In this document: positions 7,737-47,418 of the stretch, piece after piece
Position numbering within the stretch: the stretch's first letter is position 1
Layout: each line of letters starts with the position of its first letter
Assembly (NCBI GenBank): GCA_003158585.1
Contig: PMKE01000071.1
Coordinates: 10,003-74,002, forward strand
Direction of reading: 5' to 3'
Length of the DNA: 64,000 bases
From: Alphaproteobacteria bacterium
GTDB lineage: Bacteria; Pseudomonadota; Alphaproteobacteria; Micropepsales; Micropepsaceae
Made by a program: the position numbers and the translations under genes
Notes under the pieces: generated by a model
The model's database searches: none
Seen by the model: the letters and a program-made list of their open reading frames with translations, nothing else
Told to the model about the DNA's origin: nothing

Positions 7737-7789
7737 TGATCCCCCGAAGAGGTATGCTTGCGGCGTCAAAGCCGTAAAGGACTGAGGAC

Positions 7790-26585: not shown

Positions 26586-27059
26586 TCAATGCAGATGCGT
26601 CAGCCGCCGGAACGACAGCGCCTCGGCGATGTGCGGACGCCTGACGTCGTCCGAACCTGCCAGATCGGCAATCGTACGCGCCACCCGCAGCATGCGATGA
26701 TAACCGCGCGCCGTCAGGCGCATCCGCTCGGCGGCTTCGGAAAGCAGCTTGGCACCCGCCGCGTCCGGTGTCGCGACGCGGCCGAGCAGTTCGCCGTCGG
26801 CTTCGGCATTGGTGCGCACGCCGTACCCCTCGAAGCGCCGGCGCTGGATATCGCGGGCCCGCTCCACGCGCCCCGCCACGTCGGCACTCGACTCGGCGGG
26901 CGGCGGCAGGCTGAGATCGGCTGCGGAGACGCCCGGCACTTCCACATGGATGTCGATGCGGTCGAACAAGGGTCCCGAGATTTTCGACTGGTACTCCTGG
27001 GCGCATTTGGGCGCGCGCCCGCAGGCCTGCGCCGGATCGCCGAGATAGCCGCAGCGGCA
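26586..27059 (-). pseudogene. comM: comM/yifB 3' fragment (C-terminal ~157 codons), separated from its 5' part by the island
   Basis: CRCGYLGDPAQACGRAPKCAQEYQSKISGPLFDRIDIHVEVP...ARGYHRMLRVARTIADLAG is the canonical ComM/YifB C-terminus. It is read in frame after the recombinase ORF. Confidence 0.85.
27054..27059. other. Left island junction (candidate att core)
   Basis: The minus-strand codons TGC-CGC here and TGT-CGT at 47413-47418 are the only sequence shared by the two comM junctions. Confidence 0.5.
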
Positions 27060-28553
27060 TGCATTTGTTGCCTTGCCATCGCGCTTTAGCGAAGCGGGAA
27101 AGTACAAGAGGTTGACGGCAACCTCTTCCTTTCCAACGATAATTTTGTCCGTGATGGTTTCGACCAGCTGGCGCTTCTCCGCTTGGCTGAATTCAGTCCA
27201 ACGAAGGGCCAAGTCTCCAGCATCGGAGACGGACGCCTGCTTCCCGGACACGGAAATTCGCATCACGTCGAGCTTCGCCTGGAGGCGTGGCAGTTCGTCC
27301 TCCAGCTGGTCCCGGCGTTCGGAAAGCGGCTTGTGACGGCGGCCGAAGTCGTCCTGCGACAGCTGGCCTCCGAGGTATAGCTGGTACAGCTGGTCGTCCT
27401 CTTGAGAGATTTTCTCAAGTTCGGCCTTGGCGGCTGCAACCAGCGCTTCATTCTCCCGGATGGCTTCATTCGCGGCTTCAAGATGGGCGGAGACCTGTTC
27501 GGGCGAAAGGAGGAACCGGGAAAGCTCGTCGTGATAAACGGCCTCAAGGTCGGGTATCGGTATCTTGTTCCGGCATTTGGGGCAGATGTACTTGGGAGAG
27601 TTGGCGCCCACGTACATCTTCGCGCCGCACTCACAATAGGCATAGCCGGTGAAGAGGTGGACGTTCTCGCGGGAAGGTTTTTTGTGCGAGACCCGCCGCT
27701 CGTCGAGAATGCGATTGCACTCTTCCCATAATTCCTCGCTCACGATTGCCTCGACGGGCGTTAGTACCCATTCACTCTCGGGCTTCAACTCCCACGACCT
27801 CGTGCGGTCGTTCGTGGTCGTATAGTTCTGGCGATACGTGCCCTTCGCGGACGGGTCGCGGAGAAGGCGGTCAACGGTCGTATCGGAGAACTTGGAGCCG
27901 TTCCGGGTGCGGTATCCGCGCTCGTTCAGGATGCGCGCGACCGCCTTCTTGCGACGGTGTTCGGCGAATAGCTCGTACATGAGAGCGCGGACAGCGCGTT
28001 CCTTGGGATGCGGCTGAAGCTTCTTGTCCTTCCACTGGTATCCGAAGGGAGCGGCCCCGCCTATCGGCCGCCCCATCTTCGCTCGGATCGGGACGGACGC
28101 GGCGACGCGCTCAGCAATCTCTTCGCGCTCCCACTGCGCCATTGCGGCAACGATGGTGAAGAAGAGGCGTCCAGCCGGGGAGCCGGTGTCGATTGCTTCT
28201 TGAAGGGAAATCATGTCCGCGTTCGCGTCCCGGAAGGCGTCCGCGAATTCGAGAAGCTCTCGCGTGTTCCGTGCCAAGCGGGCGATCTTCGAAAACACGA
28301 GCGCGGTTATGTGTCCCGAGCGTATGTCCACGAGCATACGTTTTGCCTCGGGATGCTCCATAACGGTTTTCCCGGAGACGGCCTCAAGGTGGTACACCTC
28401 GCGCACTTTCCACTCCCTAGCCTCCGCGTACATGCGAGCGCGTTTCTCGTGGACCTCGGGGCTTTCGCCCCGTGCCTGGTCTTCCGTGCTGACGCGTATC
28501 CAAATGCCAACGGCTTTCTGCCGGTTGGCGTTCTTTGATGGTGCGGATTTCAT
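27060..28553 (-). CDS. Large serine recombinase (island integrase); ORF runs on in frame into the comM 3' fragment
   Basis: Resolvase catalytic region VGIWIRVSTEDQ, recombinase domain, zinc ribbon YCECGAKMYVGANSPKYICPKCRNK, coiled coil. There is no stop before 26586. Confidence 0.9.
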
Positions 28554-28695
28554 TTTGATGACCCCGACGAAACGCCAACGAGTCTAGCGTCCATTCGAGG
28601 ACAGTCTCAACGGCGAAGACCGCCCCGGAAAGGGGGCGTTGTCGGCCGGATTGTCAGGTTCGGACGCCTTTCAGTCGCGCGCACGTGCCGGGACA

Positions 28696-29382
28696 ATGGC
28701 GCGGCCCGGATTCCGGCGCTTCATGGGGCGGCTCCCGAAAATTCCAGGCGCGAAGGAGATTGTGCGCACCGGCGGGGCGCTTCTCATTCACGGCGATTGC
28801 ATGGAAATGCTGCCGCACCTTGTGGACCGATACGATGCCATCATTTCCGACCCACCGTATGGCATCGGATACAACCCGTCGTCTCCCTCAGGAAGCAAGT
28901 GGAAGAACGTGAAGCGGATCGTGGGCGACGCGGAGCCGTTCGATCCGACGCCGCTTCTCGGGCACGTGAAGACCGTCGTTCTCTTCGGGGCAAACAACTA
29001 TGCGAACCGTCTGCCGAATTCGCGACGCTGGTTCGTATGGGACAAGCGGCCGAGCATGAAGAGCATGAGCTTCTCGGATTGCGAGCTGGCGTGGTGCTCG
29101 ACAGACGGCCCCGCGCGCATGATCCGCGTCGTGTGGAGCGGGGCGAACCGGGGCGACGAGCGCGGGCAGCACTGGCATCCGACGCAGAAGCCGATTGAGG
29201 TTATGCGGCAGATTATCGAGGCGACCACCAAGCCCGGCGATACAATCCTCGACCCCTACATGGGATCGGGCACGACCGGCATCGCAGCGCTGCGTACAGG
29301 GCGAAAATTCGTCGGCATTGAAATTGAAAGACGGTGGTTCAACGCGGCAGTAGTACGAGTGAGGAGAGGCACCACCACTTAA
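28696..29382 (+). CDS. Beta-class N6-adenine/N4-cytosine DNA methyltransferase (no partner nuclease seen)
   Basis: Motif IV ISDPPYGIGY precedes motif I DPYMGSGTTGIAA (beta-class order). The ORF opens at 28639; likely ATG starts are 28696 or 28723. Confidence 0.8.
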   Translation: MARPGFRRFMGRLPKIPGAKEIVRTGGALLIHGDCMEMLPHLVDRYDAIISDPPYGIGYNPSSPSGSKWKNVKRIVGDAEPFDPTPLLGHVKTVVLFGANNYANRLPNSRRWFVWDKRPSMKSMSFSDCELAWCSTDGPARMIRVVWSGANRGDERGQHWHPTQKPIEVMRQIIEATTKPGDTILDPYMGSGTTGIAALRTGRKFVGIEIERRWFNAAVVRVRRGTTT

Positions 29383-29421: not shown

Positions 29422-30840
29422 TCAATGCCCTTTCTGTGCTTGATCGACATTGCGCTGGGTGCCAGACACGGAATCTGACTGGAGGGAAAAATTCTCTATC
29501 TTGCGCCACTGACTGAACAGGCTCTCATCCGCCTTGGCGATGAAACTCACGACGTCTAGCGCCGCCAACAGTACGAATATAACGAATAAGGCCAAAAGCG
29601 GCACCTTTTCAGTATTCGTGCGCTTGTGCCATTCCCGATCCACCTTGTACGCCTGAAAGGCGATGAATATCGCTGACACGAGAAGGGCGGAGACCGATAT
29701 CAGAAATGCGGGCTTGTTAGTGCTCAATCTCATGAGCAAATACGAAACTACGAAGATGCCGCCAAATAGGCCGTAGTACGCGAAGGGAGTAACGGCAGCG
29801 AAGAACCATCCGCGTGGCCGCCCAACTTGAACTAACTTCTTCTCGGTTGCGGTTTCTATCGCATCGATATCACTAATCGACGCACGCGTCCGCGCTTCTC
29901 TGAGACCGTCATTCTCTTTCAACAAGTTCCCGATGTACTGGGCGTCCTCAGGTTCGATTCCAGCGTGAACGAATCCTCTCAGCAAATGGGCCAGTCGGAA
30001 GTTCTGGGGAATGGAAATGACGTTTTCGTACACAGCTTCGATCATCTCGTAGAAGAAGCGTCGTGCCTTTTCATCCAGTGATGGTCGAAGCATCGCAAAC
30101 GACTTAATTACGAATGCGGGCGTGTACACTTTGTAGCTGTCTGGCCGGTCATTCTTGACCTGAGCAAGCGTGTAGTTTCCGTTTTCTTGAGCGATCAGTT
30201 CAACGCATCGACGCATTCCATTCGTCACCGCTATCGGGTGACCTATGCTCAGCCGACGGGGCGTAAGTGCGTCAAGATAGATCGCAGCCTCGTATGGGTC
30301 GTAGTTATCGCGGCCTGCTTCGTCGTCAAGATGCCTTCGCGCCATTTCGGACGACTGACGAAGAACGGAGAACTCGTTTCCCCCTGCCTCAAGAATGTCC
30401 TTGCATCCATTCACATACAGCCAACGCTCAACGAGAGACGCCGTGCCTGGGGCGAACTTGTCAGAAATGCCCTGGATGCAGCAGTTCTTGAACTTCTCAT
30501 TGACTGTGAAGACAGTCCCGGGTGGAGTTATGAACCGCAAGTGAAAGAGGTAGGCAGAAAGTGCGCGAATGTAGTTTGCCAAATCAAGCGTGCTGGTATC
30601 GCGCGCTAGGACGTCAGCCATAATGAATTCAATCGGGCCTTTTAGCCTTTTCGGAAAATCGGCAGGTACTACAATTGCGGAGGACATAGCCGCGTCAATG
30701 AGCGCGAGAACGACCTCAGCGGTTACGGTGACCGACGGGCGGGTACCTGCCGAATCAAGCGTCCATCCCGCTGCGTCGGGACTGCAAATGCAGGTATCGA
30801 GCAGCTGATCGAAAATCTTTTGGGAAACGGTAGTGGGCAT
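29422..30840 (-). CDS. Hypothetical protein: ~340-aa helical soluble domain plus C-terminal 3-4 TM helices
   Basis: Clean 472-codon ORF in the low-G+C segment. C-terminal hydrophobic helices: FFAAVTPFAYYGLFGGIFVVSYLLM, AFLISVSALLVSAIFIAF, LLALFVIFVLLAALDVVSF. No family recognised. Confidence 0.6.
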   Translation of the reverse strand: MPTTVSQKIFDQLLDTCICSPDAAGWTLDSAGTRPSVTVTAEVVLALIDAAMSSAIVVPADFPKRLKGPIEFIMADVLARDTSTLDLANYIRALSAYLFHLRFITPPGTVFTVNEKFKNCCIQGISDKFAPGTASLVERWLYVNGCKDILEAGGNEFSVLRQSSEMARRHLDDEAGRDNYDPYEAAIYLDALTPRRLSIGHPIAVTNGMRRCVELIAQENGNYTLAQVKNDRPDSYKVYTPAFVIKSFAMLRPSLDEKARRFFYEMIEAVYENVISIPQNFRLAHLLRGFVHAGIEPEDAQYIGNLLKENDGLREARTRASISDIDAIETATEKKLVQVGRPRGWFFAAVTPFAYYGLFGGIFVVSYLLMRLSTNKPAFLISVSALLVSAIFIAFQAYKVDREWHKRTNTEKVPLLALFVIFVLLAALDVVSFIAKADESLFSQWRKIENFSLQSDSVSGTQRNVDQAQKGH

Positions 30841-30979
30841 GGAGATGTCGAGAATGAAGCACCGACTCGGCCGAATACGCAGCCCTCAACGATAAGGCAC
30901 CAAGCTCAAATTGGTGTCAACATCTGCTACAACAACCGCCAGGGATGGCGCGTGCCATTTGGACGCGCTTAGCTGCTGT

Positions 30980-31585
30980 TCAGTTGATGAGGAATCCAAC
31001 ACCGAAACCGCGATTGAATGCATCTGCAGAGTCGCGTGAAAGCTTTGATTGGAGTAAGAAAACCCATTCCGTGGTGTCGTCCGATGAGACAATGTCCGAC
31101 CCAAAATCCACGAGATATCCAATCGATTCGTTCAGGCGAATATCTGCCCAAAGTTCGGTAGGGCGGAGCTTTAAGTGCGCAAGCTCCCGAGCAATCTTCC
31201 CCATTTGCAGCGCAACATCCGCTTGCATCAAATCGGGCGACGGCATTTCGTCCGGTATGAATTGTTCAATAGAGACTGCCGGGTACGTGGCGTACAGGTG
31301 GGGCACAGGCACGCCTCGCGCGCCGATCATCTTTCGCCTTTGTTCGCTCCGAACCTGTTGCTGTTCAGGAGAAAGGCCCCACCCGACGAATGCCTTCGCA
31401 ATAACGTGTTCGCTTGTATTTTCGGAAAGAGCCAAGACGCCTTCCGCAACATAGGTCTCAGAGCCGCCCCTTCGCCAAGACCCAACGTCGGAGATCGCTA
31501 TAACAGCGCCCGCCGATCTTCGGACCCACTTCCGATTGATCGCCTCTAAGAGCTGCGACTCATTGAGCTTGTATTCGGAGAGCAT
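30980..31585 (-). CDS. Small protein-kinase-like fold protein (RIO/Kdo/APH-like minimal kinase)
   Basis: Candidate VAIK-like lysine VIAKAF, and a catalytic-loop plus DFG arrangement ADIRLNESIGYLVDFGSD. Only 201 aa. Confidence 0.5.
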   Translation of the reverse strand: MLSEYKLNESQLLEAINRKWVRRSAGAVIAISDVGSWRRGGSETYVAEGVLALSENTSEHVIAKAFVGWGLSPEQQQVRSEQRRKMIGARGVPVPHLYATYPAVSIEQFIPDEMPSPDLMQADVALQMGKIARELAHLKLRPTELWADIRLNESIGYLVDFGSDIVSSDDTTEWVFLLQSKLSRDSADAFNRGFGVGFLIN

Positions 31586-31613
31586 GCCTCCGAAGAGTCC
31601 ATCCGAAATTAGG

Positions 31614-32237
31614 TTAGCTATTTTTCGCTCCTAGCAGCCGAATGACCTCAACGGGCGTTTCGCCGTGGACGTATACGCCGTTCCACTTTTTGTTCAGCAT
31701 GGCGACGTATTCGTTCCACTCTTCGGGTAAAAATGCCTTTATTCCACGTTTCTTCAAGAATTCGCGCAACGTCTCTTCTGCTTTTTTATCGTCGTGCAGC
31801 TTGCCGACGTATTCGACCTCGACAAAGCAATCCGCCGCTTGTGTCGGGTTCTTAAAATCTAGCACTTCTTGGACTGCAATCTCGACTTCTCCAACCGTGC
31901 CCCTATGTATTCTACGCCCACCAGCAACACCTTTCTCGTATCCCAGCAACGCCATAACGGAGAGTGCTCCGCTCAAGTCCTCTGGCAAAATGCGAGCGAT
32001 TGCCTCCTCTCGCTTTGCCCCTCCGAACTGGCCACGCTTCACGACGAACTCAGGGCTTCCGTTCGTCACTCTCACACGAACGTCCAAACGGCGTTCTCCG
32101 ATGCCTTCAATGAAGGTGGAATAGTCGATAAAGCACCTTGATTGGACGACGGCATCCGCGGCTTTGCCAAGCTCGTCCTTTAGTGTCTTCGCTTGCGCTT
32201 CGGTGACGTGTGCCCTGAGTTCGATTTCTGTGGCCAT
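31614..32237 (-). CDS. CYTH-like (triphosphate tunnel metalloenzyme; CyaB/ThTPase family) protein
   Basis: N-terminal ExExK-like EIELR. Alternating charged beta-strands RLDVRVRV, EFVVKR, EVEIAVQEV and FVEVEYV are typical of the tunnel fold. Start lies 2 nt after the NDK-like stop. Confidence 0.6.
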   Translation of the reverse strand: MATEIELRAHVTEAQAKTLKDELGKAADAVVQSRCFIDYSTFIEGIGERRLDVRVRVTNGSPEFVVKRGQFGGAKREEAIARILPEDLSGALSVMALLGYEKGVAGGRRIHRGTVGEVEIAVQEVLDFKNPTQAADCFVEVEYVGKLHDDKKAEETLREFLKKRGIKAFLPEEWNEYVAMLNKKWNGVYVHGETPVEVIRLLGAKNS

Positions 32238-32239
32238 GT

Positions 32240-32776
32240 TTAGTTTTCCAATCCTTGATTTGGGAACCAGAGCGAGATTTCGTAATTCGCTTCCAGGTAC
32301 GGCTCAGAGCCGGACGCCTTGTCCGACGCGTGAACTAAGTTGGCTGTGCCTCGCTTTTCCGAATTTGCTTTAGCAATGCTATCGGTTCCAAAATCTCCAC
32401 GAATAGTACCTGGAAGTGCATTTTGTGGATCGGTAGCCCCAACGAGCGCACGCACTCGCTTGATGGCGTTCTCTCCGCCCAATACCATTGGAAGAACATT
32501 CCCCGACATCATGTAATCACGATTCCAGCCGAGGACCATTCTACCATAAGCAGTGACGTCATTCCCGACGTCCGTTCCAGCAGCGCGGCTCTTTTCACCA
32601 ATGATCGGTGCCAGCTTTTCGACTTGGTAATGCCTGTTGAACGCCTCAGCACTAGGTTTGTCGAGGCGGGCAGCCAGGATCGTAAGTCCGGCTCGCTCAA
32701 ATCGATGGATAATATCGCCTGCCAAACCACGCTTGATCGTGTCGGGCTTCAGAATAACAAGCGTCTTCTCATACAT
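32240..32776 (-). CDS. Nucleoside diphosphate kinase-like protein (divergent, extended)
   Basis: TLVILKPDTIKRGLAGDIIHRFERAGL and the catalytic-His motif NLVHASD. Longer than canonical NDK, with an internal insertion and a C-terminal tail. Confidence 0.75.
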   Translation of the reverse strand: MYEKTLVILKPDTIKRGLAGDIIHRFERAGLTILAARLDKPSAEAFNRHYQVEKLAPIIGEKSRAAGTDVGNDVTAYGRMVLGWNRDYMMSGNVLPMVLGGENAIKRVRALVGATDPQNALPGTIRGDFGTDSIAKANSEKRGTANLVHASDKASGSEPYLEANYEISLWFPNQGLEN

Positions 32777-32900
32777 TGAGGATTCCTCATGCTCTTTGAA
32801 AAAATGGGTTTTGTCGGGAAGCGGATACCGCGAACGAGCAAAAATCGCAACAGAGGCAGACCGTTAGGTCACATGGCTTGCCTCTCGCGCCAATGGCTGC

Positions 32901-33812
32901 TCAGAAATGCCGCATTAACCGGGCAACGTGAATTTTCAGGTACTCAAAGACTACGTACGTCCACATTTCTTCATTTAGATAGAATGAGTTACGCTCGTCT
33001 AGAGCGTTCGGCGCACCACGCCGAATGACAAGGGGTGACCAATCAGCAACAGCTTTGAACGTCAATGCGGCTCTTCGCAGGTGGAAAGGAGCTGTCACAA
33101 TTATCACGCGCCGTGGCAGAGAGCTGCCACTAGCACGAAGCACAGCAACCGAATTGACGACATTCTCGGGTGTGTTTCTTGCCTCCCTTTCAAGAACTAA
33201 GTCCGCCTCCGGCACGCCTGCTTGACGGGCGATTTCGGCGTAATAGTCGGCTTCGGCTCCGTCGAAGTGCCGCAGATAGCTTGCCTGCTTCCCGCTAAAC
33301 AGGATTTTGCCACAGAAGCCATTCTTGTAGAGCTTTATTGCCTCGTATACCCGCTGTTCGCCAGGCCCGCCGAATACAAAAACCAAATCTGCCGGGCTGA
33401 GGGGGTCCTCGCCAGATAGATAGTCCCAAACCTCTTCGAGTGCGCGTTTCTGTTCGTCACTTAGGCTAGCGCGAATCAGAAGGAAAGCCCTGTGGACTAT
33501 TGCGGTAACCGCGCGTGAATCGATTCCCTGAGGTGATGCGAAGCGGTAGGGATCGTCTGCAATACCTAAAGCTTCCAGCGCTCGGGTTAAGTGGAATAAT
33601 TCGAGCGTCTCAAGAGGACGCTTTTCGGAAATCTCGGCAGCGATCCGTTCAAGATAATCACGTTCGGTCGCCAAATGGGGATGGTATTTACCGGTCATCA
33701 TTTGCCTCCGGTATAGCCCGAAGTGGGAGACGTGGTCCAAGAAGCCACCTAAACACTCAAGAACACGTTCACGAGAGAGGTTGCAGTGCTTCGGCCGAAA
33801 ACTAGCCGACAA
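32901..33812 (-). CDS. DUF218/YdcF-family protein with N-terminal extension
   Basis: DLVFVFGGPGEQRV, ILFSGK, ARNTPENV and VIIVTAPFHLRRA match the YdcF/SanA-type DUF218 pattern. The start may instead be the MMTGKY ATG near 33701. Confidence 0.6.
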   Translation of the reverse strand: MSASFRPKHCNLSRERVLECLGGFLDHVSHFGLYRRQMMTGKYHPHLATERDYLERIAAEISEKRPLETLELFHLTRALEALGIADDPYRFASPQGIDSRAVTAIVHRAFLLIRASLSDEQKRALEEVWDYLSGEDPLSPADLVFVFGGPGEQRVYEAIKLYKNGFCGKILFSGKQASYLRHFDGAEADYYAEIARQAGVPEADLVLEREARNTPENVVNSVAVLRASGSSLPRRVIIVTAPFHLRRAALTFKAVADWSPLVIRRGAPNALDERNSFYLNEEMWTYVVFEYLKIHVARLMRHF

Positions 33813-33856: not shown

Positions 33857-34576
33857 TTGCAGAGAGGTCCCATGTTTCCCTTCATCAAAATCTGTGGCGT
33901 CCAGTCACAAGCCGAAGCAAAACTCTGCGTTTCAGCGGGCGTCACGGCGGTCGGCTGTCTCGTTGGGCTGACGCACAAGGCGGAAGACAAGGTTACACCT
34001 GACGTAGCCGCGGGTATCTTCGCATCTCTTCCGAAGGAGGTGCTCAGCGTGCTCGTGACCCATCTCACAGAGGTGGACGATCTGGTTGAGTATGCAAATC
34101 TGACCAAGCCGCGTGCCATTCAGGTACACGGTGACGCGAGCCTTCAAACTGTCGAGCGCCTCGCGTCTCGCTTGCCGAACGTTGTGTTGATTAAGGCTGT
34201 GCATGTGCTCGATCAGGGCGCGGTTGAAGTGGCCCGAGAGTGGGACAACGCGCCAATATCCGCAATTTTATTAGACAGTCGCACAGCCGACCGCCTGGGC
34301 GGGACAGGGCAAACACACGATTGGGGAATCAGTGCGGCGATTGTCCGCGCATCCAAGCATCCGGTAATTCTCGCCGGTGGACTGAGTCCAGCGAATGTCG
34401 GAGACGCGATCCGGGCGGTTTGTCCCAAAGGAGTTGACACCAACAGCGGTGTCGAAGTTGTAGGTGGTGCAAAAGACCCTCTCAAAGTGAGAGCATTTGT
34501 TCAAACGGCACGCGACGAATTCGCGCGCTGTGATTCCGTGGGCGACGTATGTCAGCCGCCAAACACTGCGAAATAA
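33857..34576 (+). CDS. Phosphoribosylanthranilate isomerase (TrpF)-family protein, island-borne
   Basis: IKICGV, LLDSRTADRLGGTGQTHDW, ILAGGLSPANV and GVDTNSGVE. ATG 33872 is an alternative start. Confidence 0.75.
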   Translation: MQRGPMFPFIKICGVQSQAEAKLCVSAGVTAVGCLVGLTHKAEDKVTPDVAAGIFASLPKEVLSVLVTHLTEVDDLVEYANLTKPRAIQVHGDASLQTVERLASRLPNVVLIKAVHVLDQGAVEVAREWDNAPISAILLDSRTADRLGGTGQTHDWGISAAIVRASKHPVILAGGLSPANVGDAIRAVCPKGVDTNSGVEVVGGAKDPLKVRAFVQTARDEFARCDSVGDVCQPPNTAK

Positions 34577-35715
34577 AACCGCTGGAGAAGCGGACCTACC
34601 TGTTTAGGGAACAACTCATTTAGTCCGGTCACGGCGGCGAGAATGGCCGCCGCAATTTGCCATAGGCGATTCGTCACCCGACTGATGCGCTGAAAGACCA
34701 GTGCGCGAAGTGACATATATTCTTGCTCAATGCCGAAATTATCCAACGAGGCTTCGTCCTCGATATTGCCGATGGTTGTGCGATCCGATTTGACAACGCG
34801 GCAGATAATCGGCCACGAAATCTCCCTGAACTCTTCTATAAATTCACGCTGATGCGAGACGTTTTCTCCGACTATCGCTAAGCCGCATGCCAAAGCATCT
34901 CTTGTGCCGGTGCTTGTCGCACGATCATGAATGGTTTCCTCAAATCTCCGAACGGTACCATCTGAGAAGATGAGCTTTATCCCAATGTCGTGAGCGGTCC
35001 CGTCAGCGTTTTGCTCGAATTTATCGAACACTCCGATGACTGAGACGCATAGCTCCCCGAGCATGGAATGGAAATCGGTTACACTTCTTTCTGCAAACGA
35101 ATTCTCCAGAGCTTTGAAAATGCGCGCGTCTGTTGCCAGCGCCCGTACTGGGACGTGAGACGCGCGTTGGGCCTCCGCGAACCGGAGCACCTTTGTTTCA
35201 GATACACTTGCTATCGTGATTGGTTTGCCTACGCGGTTGCATAGCTCTAACGTCTGAGACAACTGGTCTGCGGAGAGATTGCAGTCGATGATTACGGATG
35301 ATGACCGCCTTATAAGCCGACGAATTCGCCTTAGTGGTAGGTCAATTCTATCGACGCCAGTTGAAGTAACGGCAGATACATAATTGCCTTCATGTTTGTT
35401 AGCGACAAAGGCACCCGCGTATGACCGGCGATCACGAGAGATGGACTCTGTCGAGACACCCTCGCGGCGCAAGCGGGAGACGATCCACTTCTCTACCACA
35501 CTCCCGGCTCGGACAGCCGTCCAGATCCCAACCTTGTATCCGAGGCGGGCAAGATTGACGCTGACGTTATAGGCGCTTCCACCAAGTCGAACCTCAATGT
35601 GCCCGACCTTATCGAGATGTTTTGGATCGTCATGTGATATTCCTAAAATATCGACATGGGCCGATCCGATAATCGCAAAACGCGCCCTTTTTCTTTTTGT
35701 CCCCGTTGCGCGCAT
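34552..35715 (-). CDS. PfkB/ribokinase-like kinase with hydrophobic C-terminal extension
   Basis: FAIIGSAHVDILG, RLGGSAYNVSVNLARLG (GG motif), and a degenerate anion-hole motif STGTRDALACGLA. C-terminal LWQIAAAILAAVTGL. The ORF opens at 35787. Confidence 0.65.
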   Translation of the reverse strand: MRATGTKRKRARFAIIGSAHVDILGISHDDPKHLDKVGHIEVRLGGSAYNVSVNLARLGYKVGIWTAVRAGSVVEKWIVSRLRREGVSTESISRDRRSYAGAFVANKHEGNYVSAVTSTGVDRIDLPLRRIRRLIRRSSSVIIDCNLSADQLSQTLELCNRVGKPITIASVSETKVLRFAEAQRASHVPVRALATDARIFKALENSFAERSVTDFHSMLGELCVSVIGVFDKFEQNADGTAHDIGIKLIFSDGTVRRFEETIHDRATSTGTRDALACGLAIVGENVSHQREFIEEFREISWPIICRVVKSDRTTIGNIEDEASLDNFGIEQEYMSLRALVFQRISRVTNRLWQIAAAILAAVTGLNELFPKQVGPLLQRFYFAVFGG

Positions 35716-35946
35716 TGGTCCCCCCGACACCAATACTGAACAGCCTGAACGTTGCGCTTCTTCCTCGCCGCTGTTTGTAAGGCGCACGCACCGCTAGGCG
35801 GCTCCCCATGGCGATATTGTCCGGCTAGTTGCCGAGACGCAAGTATGTGATCGCGACCTTACCTCATCTGCAATGTCGCTGCGGTGCGCTTCGAACGAAA
35901 ATTCAGTGGGCTACCAGTCACTTATCTCTGATACTCCTGTTGAGAG

Positions 35947-36480
35947 TCAGATTAACTCGTTCCGGTTTGCGTAGTGCACGATAAGTAGCGCCGCCGCGTT
36001 GAAGAGCGCCATTTTGATGTCTTCAGTCTCCCACGGTCGGCGCTTGTTGGGAAGCCTATGCCGAATCTCCTTGAGGTACGACGCGACAGTGGACGCGATG
36101 GCATAGCGTGTCTTGGGCTTCGTGCTTTCGAAGCAGAATTTGATTTGCTCGCGCGAGATAATGCGAAGCGGCGTTTTGTTCATCACAGAGAGTGACGCGA
36201 TGGACCGGCACAGCTGCTGTATCCGCTTGCTCCGCCGCGTAGCCCCTCCTTCGAAGGCTTCAAGGACGATTGATGCGGGATGATATTCCGCGACGATGGA
36301 CTCGACGCGCTTCATGCACCGGGCGTTCTTCTCTTGCGGCGTGCCGGGCATCTTGGCCGCGGCGCAGATATCCCACGCCACTGGAGATAGCGGACCGTCG
36401 AAGACGATCCACCCGAATCCGTCCTTGGACGGGAAGATCGCGAGCGCAGTGTTAAAGCCGAGACGGTTGCTGTTCGTCAT
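35947..36480 (-). CDS. Hypothetical protein (weak RNase H/RuvC-like N-terminal pattern, key Asp not conserved)
   Basis: 177-codon ORF overlapping the upstream XRE gene by 4 nt. LAIFPSKDGFGWIVF resembles but does not match the RuvC motif. Confidence 0.45.
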   Translation of the reverse strand: MTNSNRLGFNTALAIFPSKDGFGWIVFDGPLSPVAWDICAAAKMPGTPQEKNARCMKRVESIVAEYHPASIVLEAFEGGATRRSKRIQQLCRSIASLSVMNKTPLRIISREQIKFCFESTKPKTRYAIASTVASYLKEIRHRLPNKRRPWETEDIKMALFNAAALLIVHYANRNELI

Positions 36481-36827
36481 ACGTTTGGTTGTTCGCCCGC
36501 AACCCGCGAGGCGATCTCGTCGAGTAGTTGGCGCTTGATAATCGACTCCGCGTCGGTGAGGCCGCAGAGCGTCTCGGCCAACAGGGCGGCGCGCTTGGCG
36601 ACCTTCAACTCGACAGCGGCATAGAGGGAGGGAAAGATACGGCGCGCGTGCACGCCGAAGATGAATTCAGCGGCAATTAGCGATTCTTTTGAGGGACCAC
36701 GGTTCAGCTTTTCGTATCGAATGATCGCTTCGTCTGATATCCCAAGGAGTGCACCCAACTCACGTTGCGTGAGCGCCCACCGCTTGCGGTACATTTTCAA
36801 ATATGAGGGATATGGATAGTCGTGCAT
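36477..36827 (-). CDS. XRE-family HTH transcriptional regulator
   Basis: KRWALTQRELGALLGISDEAIIRYEK helix-turn-helix. Confidence 0.75.
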   Translation of the reverse strand: MHDYPYPSYLKMYRKRWALTQRELGALLGISDEAIIRYEKLNRGPSKESLIAAEFIFGVHARRIFPSLYAAVELKVAKRAALLAETLCGLTDAESIIKRQLLDEIASRVAGEQPNV

Positions 36828-37090: not shown

Positions 37091-37300
37091 ATGAAAGACA
37101 ATCAACTTTCCCCCGGCGACCTCTTCATTGATCGGTACATGCCCGGAGCGAGCGCCGAAGAGCGCGAGGAAGCGGAGAAGAATCTAGAACGCTTCGTCGC
37201 CGCCCTTGTTCGCATCGACAAGCGGCTCGAATGGGAGAAGCGGAATGCGATTCGCACGAATCCCGATTCGGAGGTAGATTCCATTAGCACCCGCATATGA
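37091..37300 (+). CDS. Small acidic hypothetical protein upstream of recombinase 2
   Basis: 69 codons. The stop overlaps the recombinase ATG (ATGA), which suggests translational coupling. Confidence 0.4.
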   Translation: MKDNQLSPGDLFIDRYMPGASAEEREEAEKNLERFVAALVRIDKRLEWEKRNAIRTNPDSEVDSISTRI

Positions 37301-38847
37301 AGCAATACTTCGCGTACATCCGCGTCTCGACTGCCAAGCAGGGAGAACACGGATCGTCATTGCAGGAACAGCGAAGCGCCATTGAGGCGTATGCGTCTCG
37401 GAATAGCCTCTCGATAGCTGAATGGTTTGAGGAGCGCGAAACTGCAGCGAAGCAGGGCCGTGCGGTGTTTTCCCGGATGCTTGCCAAGCTGGAGAAAGGC
37501 GACGCGCAGGGCGTCGTTATACACAAAATCGACCGGAGCGCGCGAAACTTGAAAGATTGGGCGAACCTGGGCGACCTTATCGACCGCGGTATCGACGTGC
37601 AGTTTGTCCACGACAGTTTCGACATGCGCTCCCGTGGCGGACGCCTCTCCGCCGATATCCAGGCCGTCGTTGCCGCCGACTATATCCGCAACCTTCGCGA
37701 TGAAGTGAAGAAGGGCTTCTATGGCCGCCTAAAACAGGGCCTTTATCCCTTGCCAGCGCCCATTGGCTATCTCGACCAGGGCAAGGGAAAGCTAAAGATT
37801 CCCGATCCAGTACGCGCGCCTTTGGTGAAAGAGGCATTCGAGCTGTACGCGACCGGCACCGCATCGTTGCGGGTACTTCAGAAGGAAATGAAGCGGCGCG
37901 GATTGAGGACTAAGGCTGGCAAGCCGCTCTCGCTGAATTCCCTCGACCAGATGCTCCACTGCCCGTTCTATGTCGGCCTTATCCGCATCATGAAAACGGG
38001 CGAGACGTTCGAAGGAAAGCACGAACCCATCGTCTTCAAGTCAACTTTCGACCGCGTGCAGGCCATCATGCGGGGCAAGACGGTATCGCGGCAGGTGAAG
38101 CATGATTTCACCTTCCGTAGAATCGTCCGGTGCGGGACGTGCGGCCGTCACCTCGTCGGAGAGCGTCAGAAGGGCCGGTACGTGTACTATCGCTGCCAAG
38201 TGCCGGACTGCCGGGGAACCATCGTCCGGGAGAAGGACCTCGACCACGCGGTACAAACCGCGCTCTCCCTTCTCCGAAGCGATCCGGCGGAGCAGCGATG
38301 GATTGAAGCCAAAGTGACAAATCTCACCAAGCAGGACGCCGAAGGGCTGGAACGGCTCAAGGCCTCCATTCAGCTACGCCTTGCGAAATCCGACGTGCGG
38401 CTGTCCCGGCTCACGGACGCATACCTTGACCGCGATATCGACAGAGAGATTTTCGAGCACCGGAAAAGTGTCGTTTTGGAGGAGCGGGCCAACCTCCGGG
38501 ACGAATTTTCTCGACTGTCCGCGAACGACCTGTCCGTGCACAGGGCACTCAGAAACCTCGAACTCGGAAATACGGCTCTGTCCGGCTACAAATCGGGAAT
38601 TCCCGCCGAACAGCGGGAAATCATCGAAAGCGTGACCTCGAACTTCACGCTACACGGAAAAAACATAGTGATTGCGCTACGTTCTCCGTTTAGAGGGTTA
38701 GCAAACTGGCGTGAATCGCAAATCGGTGCGCCGCATCGGGACACGGCTCAAGAACGCGCCGCGCAAATCCTCGATATCGCGCTGAGGGACGCCAAGGTGT
38801 CAGGTTCCGCCCCCGTTTCGCAGGACGGGCACAAACTCGCGACATGA
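37297..38847 (+). CDS. Second large serine recombinase
   Basis: FAYIRVSTAKQ catalytic serine region, recombinase domain, zinc ribbon RCGTCGRHLVGERQKGRYVYYRCQVPDCRG, coiled-coil tail. Confidence 0.9.
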   Translation: MKQYFAYIRVSTAKQGEHGSSLQEQRSAIEAYASRNSLSIAEWFEERETAAKQGRAVFSRMLAKLEKGDAQGVVIHKIDRSARNLKDWANLGDLIDRGIDVQFVHDSFDMRSRGGRLSADIQAVVAADYIRNLRDEVKKGFYGRLKQGLYPLPAPIGYLDQGKGKLKIPDPVRAPLVKEAFELYATGTASLRVLQKEMKRRGLRTKAGKPLSLNSLDQMLHCPFYVGLIRIMKTGETFEGKHEPIVFKSTFDRVQAIMRGKTVSRQVKHDFTFRRIVRCGTCGRHLVGERQKGRYVYYRCQVPDCRGTIVREKDLDHAVQTALSLLRSDPAEQRWIEAKVTNLTKQDAEGLERLKASIQLRLAKSDVRLSRLTDAYLDRDIDREIFEHRKSVVLEERANLRDEFSRLSANDLSVHRALRNLELGNTALSGYKSGIPAEQREIIESVTSNFTLHGKNIVIALRSPFRGLANWRESQIGAPHRDTAQERAAQILDIALRDAKVSGSAPVSQDGHKLAT

Positions 38848-40678: not shown

Positions 40679-42463
40679 ATGCGCGGAATGACGAAACTGG
40701 CCCCGAAATCTCAACTGACGGCGACAAGATCACAGAGCGTTGCGACAAACGGTCTTCGGCTCGTTCGACAGCTGACGCTTGCAGGACTTGATCCGCTGGA
40801 ATCGGCAGTGGAAATCGCGTCCGCCGCCGGAATCGAGGCGCGGGGTGCGGTATTCACAAAGCGCGAGGTCGTCGAGTTCATTCTCGATCTGGTCGGATAC
40901 ACGACTGATCGCGACCTTACGCACCTTCGGCTCCTTGAGCCTGCCTTCGGAAACGGGGATTTTCTTCTCGTCGCTGCGGAGCGGCTTCTTGCCTCATATC
41001 GCACCCATCCCGGCAGTAAAACGAGTCAGGGCGGAGCAACTGCGCTTCGGAACAGTATTCGGGCCGTTGAACTACATCGCGGTACTTTCGATGCGACACG
41101 TGAGAAGCTCAAGGCGCTTCTCACTGCGAACAACGTGGGAGACGAGACATCGGAAGAACTCCTGGCCGCTTGGCTTCAGTGTGGAGACTTCCTTCTAGCC
41201 GATATTGACCACACCTTTCATGTGGTCGTCGGCAATCCGCCCTATGTCCGTCAAGAACTCATTGCAGACGCGCTCATCAACGAATATCGCAGGCGTTACC
41301 AGACCATATTCGACCGGGCGGACATATACGTTCCATTTATCGAGCGCTCTCTATCTTTGCTTGAGCCGAAAGGAACGCTCGGTTTCATTTGCGCCGACCG
41401 TTGGATGAAGAATCGATATGGTGGGCCACTCCGGCGATTCGTCGCTGACAGATATCGACTCAAATATCATGTCGATATGACGGACACTCCGGCATTCCAC
41501 AGCGACGTTATCGCGTACCCTGCAATTTCGATCATTTGCCACGAGAAATCCGGTCCCACTCGTGTCGCATACCGGCCGGAAATCGAGGCGGCGTCGCTCA
41601 ATACCCTTGCGCGAGAATTAAAGGGTAAGAAGTTGTCAGCGCGGGTCACCGAATATCCGACAATCACTTCGGGCGACGCTCCTTGGATACTTGAGGGTAA
41701 CGGACGTGGGAAGATCGTGCGGGCGCTTGAAGCGCGACTGCCGACGCTTGAGGAAGCCGGATGCATGGTCGGTATCGGTGTTGCCACGGGAGCCGACCAA
41801 GTTTTCATTCAGCCCCTCGACGAATTTAACCTTGAACATGATCGCACGCTCCCGCTTGTCATGACGCGAGACATTGAAACGGGGACGATCAAGTGGCGCG
41901 GATACGGCGTGCTCAATCCGTTTGGAGAGGATGGAAAGCTCGTTTCGCTTCGCGATTATCCGAAGCTCGCTGCATACCTCGAAACACATGGAGCGGCGAT
42001 CAAGGCGCGGCACGTGTCTAAGAAGAACCCGAACTCGTGGTATCGGACGATTGACCGGATTTATCCCGAACTCACACACCGGCCGAAACTACTCATTCCC
42101 GATATCAAGGGAACAGCGCATATCGTCTATGATAGTGGTCGGTTCTATCCGCATCACAATCTCTACTACATCACTTCCGAGACGTGGGACCTTCACGCGC
42201 TGCGGGCGATACTGCGCTCGGGCGTCGCGTGGCTCTTCGTTTCGACATATGCCACGAAGATGCGCGGCGGATACCTACGATTTCAAGCGCAATATCTTCG
42301 TCGCATCCGCGTGCCGCATTGGAAAGACGTTCCGGCAAAAGTGCGCGAGGAATTGGTGCAAGCGGGCAAATCAAATGATGCCAATCGCTGCAACGACGCA
42401 GTTGCGCACCTATATGGCTTGGGCGAGTCGGAACGGTACGCTTTAATGGGGGGTGAAAGCTGA
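40679..42463 (+). CDS. Gamma-class N6-adenine DNA methyltransferase (Eco57I/TaqI-like; M.XhoI/M.PaeR7I-type)
   Basis: [16 protein letters not shown], motif [13 protein letters not shown], motif [11 protein letters not shown], plus a C-terminal target-recognition domain. ATG 40688 is an alternative start. Confidence 0.85.
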
Positions 42464-42466
42464 TCT

Positions 42467-43210
42467 ATGGCGCTCAATCTTGCAAACTACGACGAAAAGT
42501 CCCGCGAGGCCGTGAGGGCGTTTTGGGGAAACCGCGAAGCGGCGAGGAAAAAACAAATCGAGCTTGGCAAAAGCGACCAGGGCGAGCGGGCAGGCGTCAC
42601 GGGTGGCAAGAACATGGACGGGTTCGCCGCTCTCGTTCTCGACCTCGTCGCGGCGAACGGACTCGCTGACGCGCAAATCATGCGGGAAAGGCGTGCACTG
42701 ACACTTCCCGGTTATTTCCGTCCTACGAAGCTCTGGGATTTGCTCGTAATCCACGGGGGACAGCTGCTTGCTGCGCTCGAATTCAAGTCGCAAGTCGGGC
42801 CGTCGTTCGGAAATAATTTCAATAATCGCGCGGAGGAATCCCTCGGAACGGCCGTCGATTTCTGGACAGCCTACCGGGAGGGGGCGTTCGGGGAAATTCC
42901 AAAGCCGTTCGTCGGCTGGATGATACTCGTCGAGGACGAACCGGCGTCGCGGGCAAAAGTGAAAGAAACTTCGCCGAATTTTCCGGTATTTGAGGAGTTC
43001 AAAAACGTCTCGTATGCAGAGCGGTACAATATCCTCTGCAAAAAGCTCGTTAAGGAACAGCACTACACCGCCGCATCGGTGCTCCTCTCGCCGCGCGATG
43101 CGATCAACTCGGGGATGTACAGTGAGATGTCAGAGCTTACGGACCTCAAGACATTCGTGACCGGCTTCGCAGGGCACATCGCGGCGGCAGCAGCGCGGAA
43201 GAGCGCCTAG
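42467..43210 (+). CDS. XhoI/PaeR7I-family type II restriction endonuclease
   Basis: [26 protein letters not shown] and [23 protein letters not shown] match my recollection of the RE_XhoI family. Starts 3 nt after the methyltransferase stop. Confidence 0.75.
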
Positions 43211-43255: not shown

Positions 43256-43522
43256 TCACTTAACGTCGGCATACCCGAACCAGATTTCGTTGATCCACAC
43301 CGCCGTCGCCTTCGTCTCCCCGGACAGCACTGCCTTCTTGCCGCGATTGTTCGCTCGGATGATCCGCGAGAGTACGTGCCTCGCTTCTATGCTCATGTAC
43401 TGGGGGTCTCGTCTCCCGAAGAACTCGCGGATGATCTTGTCCGTGGTCCTGATAACGACGGCCTTCTTTTCGGGCGATTTTGTCCGGCTCTCGCCCCAGA
43501 CCGTGAATCCCTCATGTCCCAT
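43256..43522 (-). CDS. Hypothetical 88-aa protein
   Basis: ORF only. No clear Shine-Dalgarno sequence and no recognised family. Confidence 0.3.
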   Translation of the reverse strand: MGHEGFTVWGESRTKSPEKKAVVIRTTDKIIREFFGRRDPQYMSIEARHVLSRIIRANNRGKKAVLSGETKATAVWINEIWFGYADVK

Positions 43523-43779
43523 ACTGTGCGCGATGAATTGCTAATGCCCGCAGTGTCGCAGTGGAGCGGAGGGCAAAAAAGGACGACGAACCTGACAATC
43601 CGCCGGATCGCTTGGAACAGCGAGCAAGAGTCCTCCGTGCTGTCAGGTTTGTCTCCCGTGCGTGGATAATCTGTCGCGCATACGATGATTCCATGTGGAA
43701 TCGTGGCGAATTGCCGCAAAGCAGCTTCTCCGCGGCGGCCATAGAATCCCGTGTTCGTGATCCTTTGCGGAGGAAACCC

Positions 43780-44160
43780 ATGAAACTCTTGCTTCGTCGC
43801 AGTGAACGCTCGTCCGTTTTGGGCAAGCCGGTATACGTTCTCGAAATGCGCGCCGGACTTTCGGAAGAAGAAAGGGGCTGGATTCAGAAATACAAATTCG
43901 GCCCGTCGTTTCTGTACACGAAGAAGGGCAAGCCGACCGGAGACACGACCACGTGGACCGGTATCGGCCAGAATCTTCTCCACTATGCAATGGACCTCAC
44001 CGTGTCCGTGAACGACCTTGTGAACGGCAAGAAGATAGAGTGTAAGGACATTATGGAAATGTTGGCCGTCGAGGGGCAAATCCGCGAGGCGGCGCAGAAC
44101 TTCGCGAATGTTCTCCGCGCGGCGTCGCAGTTCGGTGGTGAAGAAGTGATCGAACTCTAA
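43780..44160 (+). CDS. Hypothetical 126-aa protein upstream of the ATPase
   Basis: ATG 43780 is preceded by GGAGGA at 43769-43774. The stop is 1 nt before the ATPase GTG start. Confidence 0.5.
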   Translation: MKLLLRRSERSSVLGKPVYVLEMRAGLSEEERGWIQKYKFGPSFLYTKKGKPTGDTTTWTGIGQNLLHYAMDLTVSVNDLVNGKKIECKDIMEMLAVEGQIREAAQNFANVLRAASQFGGEEVIEL

Positions 44161-44161
44161 C

Positions 44162-46792: not shown

Positions 46793-46961
46793 GCGGAGGC
46801 ATTCCCCTTATCGGCTTGCAGTATCCGCAGCGGGGCCACCCGTCGCACACAAGCCAGTACCGCCGCATGAAGAGGGTCCGCAGGGATCGGCCGATCCGCA
46901 CTTGAAGCGGCTTGCCGCACTCGGGGCAGACCTTGTTCTCGTTCGCAGCCTCAAGCGGCAT
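46758..46961 (-). CDS. Small topoisomerase-type C4 zinc-ribbon protein
   Basis: CPECGKPLQVRIGR...WLVCDGWPRCGYCK. ATG 46961 overlaps the end of the tandem-HTH ORF by 11 nt. Confidence 0.55.
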   Translation of the reverse strand: MPLEAANENKVCPECGKPLQVRIGRSLRTLFMRRYWLVCDGWPRCGYCKPIRGMPPPNPSVQTATLR

Positions 46962-47412
46962 CGCGGCCCCCTTCCGGCTCGCTTTCCATCGCGAGGAACC
47001 GGGACACCTTGTCCCCTGACAGGCGCGGCTTCCAGTCTCCACGTTCCCAATGGGAAAGCGTGCCCTCGTCAACGCCGAGGAGCTTCGCGGTTGTCTTGAT
47101 GGACAGACCGAGCCGCAACCGCTGCCGGGAGATGCGCTCTGCCAGGGTGGCAGGGGCCGGGAGGGGGTCATAGCCGAGGAAGCGAAAGATCGCCGGGAAC
47201 TGCTTAGCCGTGGGCTTCACACGGTCCTTTTCCCAGAGGAGGACCGTCTCGGGCGCTGTGAGGAGTTGTAACGCCGCCTGGGGTTGGGTCAGACCCAGCT
47301 GAAGGCGACGCCTAAGCAGATGTTCGCCCAAGGTTTTGGGCGTCTCGGCATAGGGCTTCGGACGACGCCATCGCAGGGAGACCGGGACGTGGGGGTGCAG
47401 GAAGGCAACGCG
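46951..47412 (-). CDS. Tandem XRE-type HTH protein, currently fused in frame to the comM 5' fragment
   Basis: Two HTH units, LRRRLQLGLTQPQAALQLLTAPETVLLWEK and ISRQRLRLGLSIKTTAKLLGVDEGTLSHWER. No internal ATG; an in-frame TTG at 47331 is a possible own start. Confidence 0.6.
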   Translation of the reverse strand, partial: RVAFLHPHVPVSLRWRRPKPYAETPKTLGEHLLRRRLQLGLTQPQAALQLLTAPETVLLWEKDRVKPTAKQFPAIFRFLGYDPLPAPATLAERISRQRLRLGLSIKTTAKLLGVDEGTLSHWERGDWKPRLSGDKVSRFLAMESEPEGGRDAA

Positions 47413-47418
47413 ACGACA
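47413..47418. other. Right island junction (candidate att core)
   Basis: Minus-strand TGT-CGT directly after ...GCG ATG AAT CCC (AMNP). Counterpart of 27054-27059. Confidence 0.5.

Follow-up and report, generated by a model that had tools for sequence, protein, structure and literature searches.

The window analysed here, a 64,000-nucleotide stretch of contig PMKE01000071.1 from an alphaproteobacterium of the family Micropepsaceae, contains a cassette that encodes a nucleoside diphosphate kinase (NDK), a CYTH protein, a small protein with a protein kinase fold (the mini-kinase) and a membrane protein. A first-pass annotation, made from the sequence and its open reading frames (ORFs), had described these genes together with a DUF218/YdcF gene as a five-gene operon of low G+C. 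All five ORFs were found on the minus strand exactly where it had placed them (Table 1), with lengths of 472, 201, 207, 178 and 303 aa in order of position, and the motifs it had quoted are present: NLVHASD in the NDK, MATEIELR at the start of the CYTH protein and ADIRLNESIGYLVDFGSD in the 201-aa protein. The NDK stop codon and the CYTH start codon are separated by 2 nt, and the 2-nt gaps or overlaps among the NDK, CYTH and kinase genes suggest translational coupling. The lower G+C was likewise real, at 0.528 for the cassette versus 0.646 for the host flanks. The G+C profile revealed that the low-G+C tract runs from ~27 to 47 kb, far beyond the operon, and it therefore marks a whole integrated element rather than the operon alone. 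A scan of this entire island against Rfam returned no match, and hence no riboswitch clue, and a promoter and terminator scan found no promoter-like site and only weak candidates for terminators.

Table 1. Positions of the cassette, its neighbours and the surrounding element within the window
Feature	Position	Strand	Basis and remarks
Integrative element, ~20 kb, low G+C	27060-47415 (approximate)		G+C profile; splits comM and carries the cassette
Large serine recombinase fused in frame to comM 3' part	26586-28553	-
N6/N4 DNA methylase	28639-29382	+	On element; adjoins cassette, separate from XhoI pair
472-aa membrane protein	29422-30840	-	Core; ~340-aa all-helical N-terminal domain and three C-terminal transmembrane helices
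Mini protein-kinase-fold protein	30980-31621	-	Core; AlphaFold2 and Foldseek; 201 aa from ATG 31585, probable start at 31621
CYTH/triphosphate tunnel metalloenzyme protein, triphosphatase type	31614-32237	-	Core; 44-sequence profile and motifs
NDK with two insertions, catalytic His149	32240-32776	-	Core, most conserved member; Pfam NDK E 2e-33
DUF218/YdcF-family protein	32901-33812	-	Pfam DUF218 E 3e-23
TrpF-like phosphoribosylanthranilate isomerase	33857-34576	+	Recurrent accessory; Pfam PRAI E 3e-29, 102.5 vs 22.7 bits
PfkB-like kinase, hydrophobic C-terminal tail	34552-35787	-	Recurrent accessory
XRE-type helix-turn-helix (HTH) protein (116 aa) and 177-aa protein	35947-36827	-	Overlapping pair
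Second serine recombinase	37297-38847		On element
Eco57I-like methylase (TaqI_C domain) followed directly by XhoI-family endonuclease	40679-43210	+
524-aa ORF	43393-44967	-	Overlaps 876-aa ORF
876-aa ORF	44162-46792	+	Overlaps 524-aa ORF
comM 5' part	46951-48459	-	Reads into island-encoded HTH segment

A conserved four-gene unit

Gene neighbourhoods were compared across 12 independent loci with usable flanks and a CYTH protein of at least 39% identity (the window and loci numbered L001 onwards). The NDK and kinase genes lie within one or two genes of the CYTH gene in 10 of the 12 (the window, L001, L002, L003, L005, L006, L013, L098, L099 and L103). A membrane protein of the same family is recognisable in eight of these ten loci; L003 has a SQHop_cyclase-type analogue and the L098 contig ends too early. 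Outside the window, membrane protein homologues adjoin the NDK, CYTH and kinase genes in L001, L002, L005, L006, L099 and L103, and also in L013 (hhalign 78%). Co-conservation elsewhere, on which the first-pass annotation had staked its proposal, was thus observed for the NDK, CYTH, kinase and transmembrane (TM) proteins. The conserved unit is a quartet of an insert-bearing NDK, a CYTH protein, a ~210-aa RIO/Bud32-like mini-kinase and a TM protein, and not the five genes originally grouped together. The fifth gene does encode a DUF218 protein, but it is confined to identical or near-identical contigs and is absent at every other cassette locus, so it was rejected as a core member.

The order of the quartet varies (TM-NDK-CYTH-kinase, NDK-CYTH-kinase-TM, NDK-kinase-CYTH and kinase-TM-NDK-CYTH), with the TM gene lying on the opposite strand in L005. 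Other phyla contribute at least two of the loci, the hosts including a Chloroflexia and a Ferruginibacter metagenome-assembled genome (MAG). Between loci of different phyla the NDK is 57-80% identical, across loci whose own G+C ranges from 0.44 to 0.70, which fits lateral transfer of the unit. Across loci, pairwise identities rise and fall together for NDK, CYTH and kinase (Spearman 0.78, 0.51 and 0.53), the pattern expected of jointly inherited genes. Sequence marks of catalysis are intact in all three enzymes (NDK His149; CYTH ExExR, RxR and ExE; kinase K64, D148, R150, D160 and D164), as are those of the accessory proteins described below (Cys and Asp of the TrpF-like protein; TG.RD of the PfkB-like protein). 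The CYTH clade is very rare, with 32 clusters among 5.8 billion proteins and seven loci among 185,579 species genomes, and the cassette itself amounts to about a dozen clusters at 50% identity.

More distant CYTH relatives (L011, L017, L018, L021 and L019-L096) are lone genes or reverse-order CYTH-NDK pairs, and the organism-named distant loci L011, L012, L014, L015 and L008 are MAGs of the candidate phyla radiation (CPR). The CYTH-NDK pair of L018 is neighboured by genes for ComEC, SMC and a radical-SAM protein. In L102 (5335-7774), a 50%-identical CYTH gene overlaps a gene for a 606-aa PPDK_N protein (ATP-grasp, dikinase-type), with no adjoining NDK or kinase gene and with a Schlafen AlbA_2 ATPase nearby. 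A metagenome scan with the CYTH profile yielded 80 loci, nearly all of them lone CYTH genes of ~30% identity with a few CYTH-NDK pairs, and no new cassettes.

Features of the four core proteins

The NDK scores 115 bits against a Pfam cut-off of 27, and its motifs are intact, with His149 falling within NLVHASD and fitting the pattern NxxH(G/A)SD; the first-pass description of this protein as NDK-like was therefore accurate. Its closest solved relative is 1xqi, an insert-bearing NDK from Pyrobaculum, to which it aligns over its full length (1e-28). The best NCBIfam model, NF001908, gives 118.9 bits, below its housekeeping equivalog threshold of 155, and by these profile scores the cassette NDK is a divergent, insert-bearing form and not the housekeeping Ndk equivalog.

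As a single sequence the CYTH protein falls below the Pfam threshold (14.4 vs 23.2 bits). A profile built from 44 family members (A6) matched the solved structures 2een (3e-9), 7ns8 (SaTTM, 1e-7) and 1yem (1.5e-4), while class IV cyclases reached only 0.08-0.09 with the same profile. Residues E4, E6, R8, R54, R56, E140 and E142 are conserved in the family. The N-terminal motif is ExExR, with E4 and E6 nearly invariant and Arg, not Lys, at the third position in the window and most relatives; RxR corresponds to R54-V-R56 (R54 invariant, R56 in at least 90% of sequences) and the strand-8 ExE to E140-V-E142, both invariant. Just three residues precede E4, there is no HF motif in the family, and a C-terminal extension is conserved (W174, N182, N186 and G187). 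Published marks of class IV cyclases are HFxxxxExExK, substitution of the first RxR arginine by a small residue, and ExA instead of ExE on strand 8 (Vogt et al., PMC8233210). As none of these three marks is present, the protein is assigned to the triphosphatase type and not to the class IV cyclases. The first-pass annotation was consequently right to place it in the CYTH superfamily, as the profile and motifs confirm, but the cyclase activity that it had left as an option is not supported. SaTTM, the nearest characterised relative, cleaves the terminal phosphate of inorganic triphosphate (PPPi), acts ~19-fold less well on nucleoside triphosphates (NTPs) and makes no cyclic nucleotide, and the physiological role of bacterial triphosphate tunnel metalloenzyme (TTM)/CYTH proteins is still largely open (PMC8233210). 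From its motifs and this relative, we predict that the cassette CYTH protein is a γ-phosphate hydrolase.

The mini-kinase has no family match in Pfam or NCBIfam, RIO and Pkinase models included, and its fold was recognised from an AlphaFold2 model (pLDDT 81.9). Foldseek searches of the PDB with this model returned RIO1, RIOK1/2 and Bud32 (E ~2e-6, probability 1.0, TM-scores of 0.5-0.59), along with further kinases at probability 1.0, and a viral structure library returned kinases only. K64, D148, R150, D160, G162 and D164 are conserved, with K64 and D148 kept in at least 90% of sequences and D160 invariant. The family also features an extra invariant Asp (DFGxD) and a W-RGG-ETY loop. The small kinase fold that had been proposed for this protein is borne out by the model, though there is no conserved catalytic-loop Asn (HRDxxxxN) after D148. 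The sequence upstream of the annotated ATG encodes, in the same frame, the conserved family motif (I)SDGLFGG (31585-31633, minus strand). An ATA codon (31621-31619) lies 6 nt beyond a GGAG sequence, with an 8-nt overlap with the CYTH stop, and at homologous loci the CYTH and kinase genes overlap by 4 nt. Judging from these features, the kinase probably starts at the non-canonical ATA at 31621, giving a protein of 213 aa.

A HMMER scan of 1.84 billion representative proteins with the kinase profile gave 519 matches with E ≤1e-3, 250 with E ≤1e-10 and 12 with E ≤1e-30, mostly to proteins of ~220 aa. In 52 sampled relatives, Pfam kinase models found no match, and the only matches were to fused NDK, carrier and PspAA parts. 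Four members are fused to an NDK, in both orders (NDK-kinase in P0125, P0137 and P0185; kinase-NDK in P0153), and the fused architectures independently argue that kinase and NDK act jointly. One further member, P0079, has a mitochondrial-carrier domain as its fusion partner, suggesting a protein that is eukaryotic or associated with eukaryotes.

The membrane protein belongs to a family of ~470-550 aa with no sequence match in Pfam, NCBIfam, PADLOC or, using the family profile, the PDB. The large helical domain and C-terminal TM helices described previously are present; hydropathy places three TM segments (residues 347-365, 375-400 and 408-439), where three or four had been suggested, and there are three in every homologue. 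The polar residues E42, R80, D86, N89, Y236 and H285 are invariant. The AlphaFold2 model is weak (pLDDT 59.9), and its higher-ranked Foldseek matches are mostly α/α toroids (GH76 and C3d/C4d; E 3e-3 to 0.1), which makes an α/α toroid the probable fold of the N-terminal domain. This domain is predicted to be cytoplasmic, both by the positive-inside rule and because no signal peptide is present. The L003 counterpart combines a Pfam SQHop_cyclase match with C-terminal TM helices; hhalign of the TM family against this protein aligned one GW...TVTSEVxLAL N-terminal repeat (E 0.0096, probability only 4%). A lanthipeptide-type pathway comprising a kinase and a LanC-like toroid was considered and dropped, as no conserved Cys/His zinc ligands and no precursor peptide were seen.

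Accessory genes, mobility and defence neighbourhood

Two genes that lie just beyond the bounds originally set for the cluster recur at other cassette loci, each being found at three loci in total. The first encodes a TrpF-like isomerase that aligns end to end with Thermotoga maritima TrpF (1lbm) and keeps Cys13 (KICG) and Asp140 (LLD), the counterparts of the catalytic residues of TrpF. It falls below all TrpF equivalog cut-offs (best 146 vs 215 bits) and neighbours cassette genes rather than trp genes, and homologues with 54% and 45% identity are encoded beside the cassette in L006, in the same operon, and in L003, respectively. The L003 locus also carries TrpF-like fragments (7470-8377, minus strand) between the toroid-type and methyltransferase genes, in addition to an intact copy at 4781-5461, and the fragments look like pseudogene remnants. 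The second gene encodes a PfkB-like kinase whose N-terminal part alone approaches the Pfam cut-off (25.7 vs 25.8 bits), with 2nwh and the pseudouridine kinase 7vkp as nearest solved relatives (~1e-9, over residues 33-208); its PfkB-type matches in NCBIfam are likewise below threshold. Homologues occur in L006 (43% identity) and L098, and GG..AYN, DCNL and TG.RD (Asp at 297) are invariant in all three; in the window this last motif reads TG-T-R-D, with the Asp kept. A class I methyltransferase gene, divergent from the NDK gene, is found in L003 and L098. The DUF218 protein of the window is 265 aa long according to an automatic gene call on an identical contig.

The element that carries the cassette interrupts comM between the codons for AAMNPC and RCGY. 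In addition to the two recombinases and the methylase next to the cassette, it encodes an Eco57I-like methylase and an XhoI-family endonuclease, which constitute a restriction-modification system on the same island as the cassette. Just upstream of the PfkB-like gene, the gene for an XRE-type HTH protein overlaps the start of a gene for a 177-aa protein without family match, and the two may be a regulator pair of the cassette or of the island. Of the two long ORFs that overlap on opposite strands near the other end of the element, the 876-aa ORF has a weak TrwB/coupling-protein match and the 524-aa ORF has none; it is likely that at most one of them is real.

Cassette G+C is below that of the surroundings at all nine loci tested, for example 0.48 vs 0.64 in L001 and 0.54 vs 0.70 in L005, where one or both flanks consist of ordinary chromosomal genes. 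At eight of the ten cassette loci, the neighbourhood features known or candidate defence genes, mobile-element DNA or both. The window has the XhoI restriction-modification system inside the comM island, and in L098, a metagenomic contig, a short pAgo with SIR2-APAZ (3357-6523; PADLOC E 1e-183 and 4e-179) directly adjoins the cassette, accompanied by an SNF2 helicase and an integrase. The remaining six comprise L002 (TIR proteins, HicB and transposases), L003 (a TIR-FGE protein and an integrase), L006 (an AbiJ-like protein and MNT/HepT, on a conjugative element), L103 (a CBASS-type patatin effector and an integrase), L099 (PDC-S31) and L013 (integrases and an IS91 transposase). Integrases or conjugation genes are thus found near the cassette in L003, L006, L013, L098 and L103. 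The proximity to defence genes that the first-pass annotation had proposed as a check was seen at most loci, in mobile DNA, while L001 has neither feature.

The same annotation had recognised no named defence system in this gene combination, and our searches agree with it: PADLOC-DB v2.0.0 (2023) gave no match with E ≤0.1 for the TM protein, kinase, CYTH, NDK, DUF218, PRAI or PfkB proteins, and full-text literature searches found no description of an NDK-CYTH-kinase-TM gene set. A PHROGs scan of the cassette proteins gave nothing relevant. PLSDB plasmids contained no match for CYTH or the kinase, and viral contigs contained no CYTH relative and one lone kinase relative, without NDK or CYTH. 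The contig of this lone relative looks like a conjugative element.

Possible function and relation to known systems

On this basis we tentatively favour, as a plausible reading that stops short of being probable, an undescribed anti-phage or anti-mobile-element conflict module that would act on nucleotide γ-phosphates. The NDK fusions suggest that the mini-kinase and NDK would work in series to build the triphosphate of a nucleoside-type compound, the kinase most simply acting one step before NDK or else regulating it. The CYTH motifs suggest that this protein would take the γ-phosphate off again, and the membrane protein could be a sensor or effector of the triphosphate, or the anchor of a complex. 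Two versions can be envisaged. In one, an activated NDK/TTM futile cycle, anchored or gated by the membrane protein, would burn ATP, and equilibration by NDK would empty all (d)NTP pools. Given the high speed and broad specificity of NDK, such a cycle would be an economical means of emptying every nucleotide pool. In the other, the kinases would build a non-canonical triphosphate whose accumulation arrests the cell or the invader, with CYTH keeping its level low or resetting it; at some loci the compound would begin as a ribosyl molecule on which the PfkB-like, TrpF-like or methyltransferase enzymes act, and the cytoplasmic toroid on its three TM helices would sense the triphosphate and act at the membrane. 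The more specific proposal of a new class of immune system, in which NDK and mini-kinase build a triphosphate (perhaps of a non-canonical nucleotide modified by the TrpF-like, PfkB-like or methyltransferase enzymes), the TTM destroys it, and its level or the cycle itself controls a toroid effector, is possible but on balance doubtful.

Several observations count against the conflict module as proposed. The argument for a defence role comes only from gene neighbourhood, and neither mobile nor defence genes surround the cassette of L001, though it is still a sharp G+C trough. The CYTH relatives of L101 and L102 have other partners or none, that of L101 standing alone. A sister clade of ~42% identity consists of CYTH-NDK pairs, and in L018, the one long contig available, the pair sits among housekeeping genes; a pair of this kind may have given rise to the mobile cassette. 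At the level of mechanism, NTP hydrolysis by CYTH is an assumption, since the closest characterised relative prefers PPPi by ~19-fold, and the toroid assignment leans on a model of pLDDT 60 and weak E-values. The kinase may serve as a switch and not phosphorylate small molecules, as its catalytic-loop Asn is missing and it resembles RIO and Bud32, which act largely as ATPases. A plain NTP drain would leave the kinase, the toroid membrane protein and the accessory enzymes unexplained, and the non-canonical triphosphate version would leave the core function unexplained where accessory enzymes are absent.

Among other explanations, a small biosynthetic pathway for a modified nucleoside or nucleotide, serving as an antimetabolite or exported antibiotic, is rather unlikely. 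The PfkB-like, TrpF-like and methyltransferase enzymes would modify a ribosyl compound that the mini-kinase and NDK then convert to a triphosphate, CYTH would trim or proof-read it, and the membrane protein would provide export or self-resistance. Such a pathway would account for the recurrence of tailoring-type enzymes (PfkB at three loci, PRAI at three, class I methyltransferases in L003 and L098), for the PRAI gene within the L006 operon, for NDK-kinase fusions that fit stepwise phosphorylation and for a PfkB-like protein nearest to a nucleoside (pseudouridine) kinase. However, at least five loci (L001, L002, L005, L099 and L103) have the core without accessories, where its function would be left unexplained, four genes are very few for a nucleoside-antibiotic cluster with no recognisable transporter fold or resistance gene, and triphosphates are not usually exported. 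Unlikely too is a role for the cassette in nucleotide pool repair or anti-defence, protecting replication of the mobile element from nucleotide-depletion immunity: the PfkB-like kinase, mini-kinase and NDK would rebuild (d)NTPs from nucleosides or nucleoside monophosphates, and CYTH would clear the PPPi released by host dNTP triphosphohydrolases. Carriage on integrative and conjugative elements, a kinase-NDK series suited to a salvage route and the PPPi preference of the closest characterised CYTH relative (PMC8233210) are consistent with this. It nevertheless offers no role for the conserved membrane toroid protein or the TrpF-like isomerase, and the PLSDB and viral contig results do not favour it. 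Hosts, moreover, normally own an NDK.

The signalling mechanism put forward in the first-pass annotation, when read as a Pycsar- or CBASS-like system in which CYTH is a class IV-type cyclase using NDK-supplied NTP and the TM protein is a signal-activated effector, is highly improbable. The layout of enzymes plus TM protein and the defence-island context do resemble signalling systems, and two family members are annotated by JGI as 'adenylate cyclase class IV'. All three published discriminators nonetheless favour a phosphatase (no HFxxxxExExK, RxR intact, ExE present), class IV cyclases are marginal beside the archaeal TTMs in the profile search, and Pfam and PADLOC scans identified no known cyclic-nucleotide sensor domain in the TM protein. 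A cyclic signal is disfavoured because CYTH has these triphosphatase marks and because NDK and CYTH look antagonistic on the γ-phosphate. We judge as similarly improbable a role in envelope or lipid-carrier modification, whereby a toroid enzyme, joined here by an ElyC/SanA-like DUF218 protein, would alter a surface or polyprenyl-linked molecule using a donor phosphorylated or nucleotide-activated by the kinases, for instance to block phage adsorption. The SQHop_cyclase matches of the L003 counterpart, a weak ElyC match of the DUF218 protein (3e-5) and the membrane-type tail of the PfkB-like protein point in this direction, but DUF218 is lineage-specific, the toroid domain is predicted to be cytoplasmic and the cassette contains no glycosyl- or prenyl-transferase genes. 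Finally, it is very improbable indeed that these are ordinary nucleotide or polyphosphate housekeeping genes clustered by chance, with no part in conflict. Sister CYTH-NDK pairs and lone CYTH genes do lie among housekeeping genes in CPR-type contigs, and the L001 cassette is flanked by ordinary metabolic genes. Against this stand the rarity and patchiness of the family, the consistently depressed G+C, the recurrent mobile or defence contexts and the high NDK identity across phyla and base compositions.

If the conflict module is indeed an immune system, it would be the first built around an NDK and a TTM enzyme, and it would bring new enzymology to prokaryotic immunity in the form of phospho-histidine NDK chemistry, a tunnel triphosphatase and an atypical kinase without a family model. 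It would also provide a first function for a mini-kinase family of ~250 uncharacterised clusters in which NDK fusions recur, and testable roles for bacterial TTM/CYTH proteins, for the NDK-fused mini-kinases (519 clusters at E ≤1e-3) and for membrane-anchored toroid proteins. Another possibility is that the accessory genes, for isomerase, kinase and methylase, hint at a nucleotide analogue not yet known. Because the cassette is so rare, its interest is mechanistic rather than ecological.

Among solved proteins, the best relatives of the cassette CYTH are the archaeal TTMs (SaTTM Saci_0718, PH1819 and Pfu-838710; cluster 3 of PMC8233210), which share its ExEx(K/R) start, RxR, ExE and length of ~200 aa. 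The cassette protein differs from them in having Arg for the motif Lys and a conserved C-terminal extension, and it is encoded within a mobile four-gene cassette whereas they stand alone. The modelled mini-kinase resembles RIO1, RIO2 and Bud32, its best structural matches, in its small two-lobed fold, β3 Lys and DFG-type Asp, but it lacks the catalytic-loop Asn, has DFGxD and W-RGG-ETY, and matches no Pfam RIO or Pkinase model. Their partners also differ, as RIO and Bud32 proteins work with ribosome or KEOPS components and the cassette kinase is found with NDK and CYTH.

Among immune systems, Pycsar, CBASS and Thoeris share with the cassette the general logic of NTP-handling enzymes encoded with a membrane protein in defence islands, but the cassette has no CD-NTase, class III cyclase or TIR protein, its CYTH bears phosphatase marks and PADLOC gives no match. 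Nucleotide depletion is the basis of defence by the anti-phage dGTPase, dCTP deaminase and Detocs. The outcome predicted here for an NDK/TTM futile cycle, a collapse of NTP/dNTP pools, would be alike, although the cassette enzymes are unrelated, several genes are involved and there is a membrane component. Prokaryotic viperins come with accompanying nucleotide kinases and so resemble the cassette in having dedicated nucleotide kinases beside a defence enzyme, but the cassette has no radical-SAM viperin. Kongming employs a dITP signal made via a kinase cascade that includes NDK, with a deaminase, an NTP pyrophosphatase and SIR2 as components (PMC12967843, PMC13454610). It provides a precedent for immunity through stepwise phosphorylation of a non-canonical nucleotide to the triphosphate, while genes resembling its deaminase, NTP pyrophosphatase and SIR2 did not turn up in Pfam scans of the cassette. 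The Kongming NDK is reportedly a host housekeeping enzyme and not a dedicated cassette gene. The cassette thus lacks the defining enzyme of every nucleotide-based defence checked, and its likeness to known systems is one of general logic only. Taken one by one, its proteins are members of known superfamilies or resemble them in fold (NDK, CYTH/TTM, protein-kinase-like, TrpF and PfkB), each being, by profile score, a divergent branch below curated orthologue thresholds. As a set, judged by gene content against PADLOC v2.0 (2023) and the literature, they appear to form a system that lies outside the known kinds.

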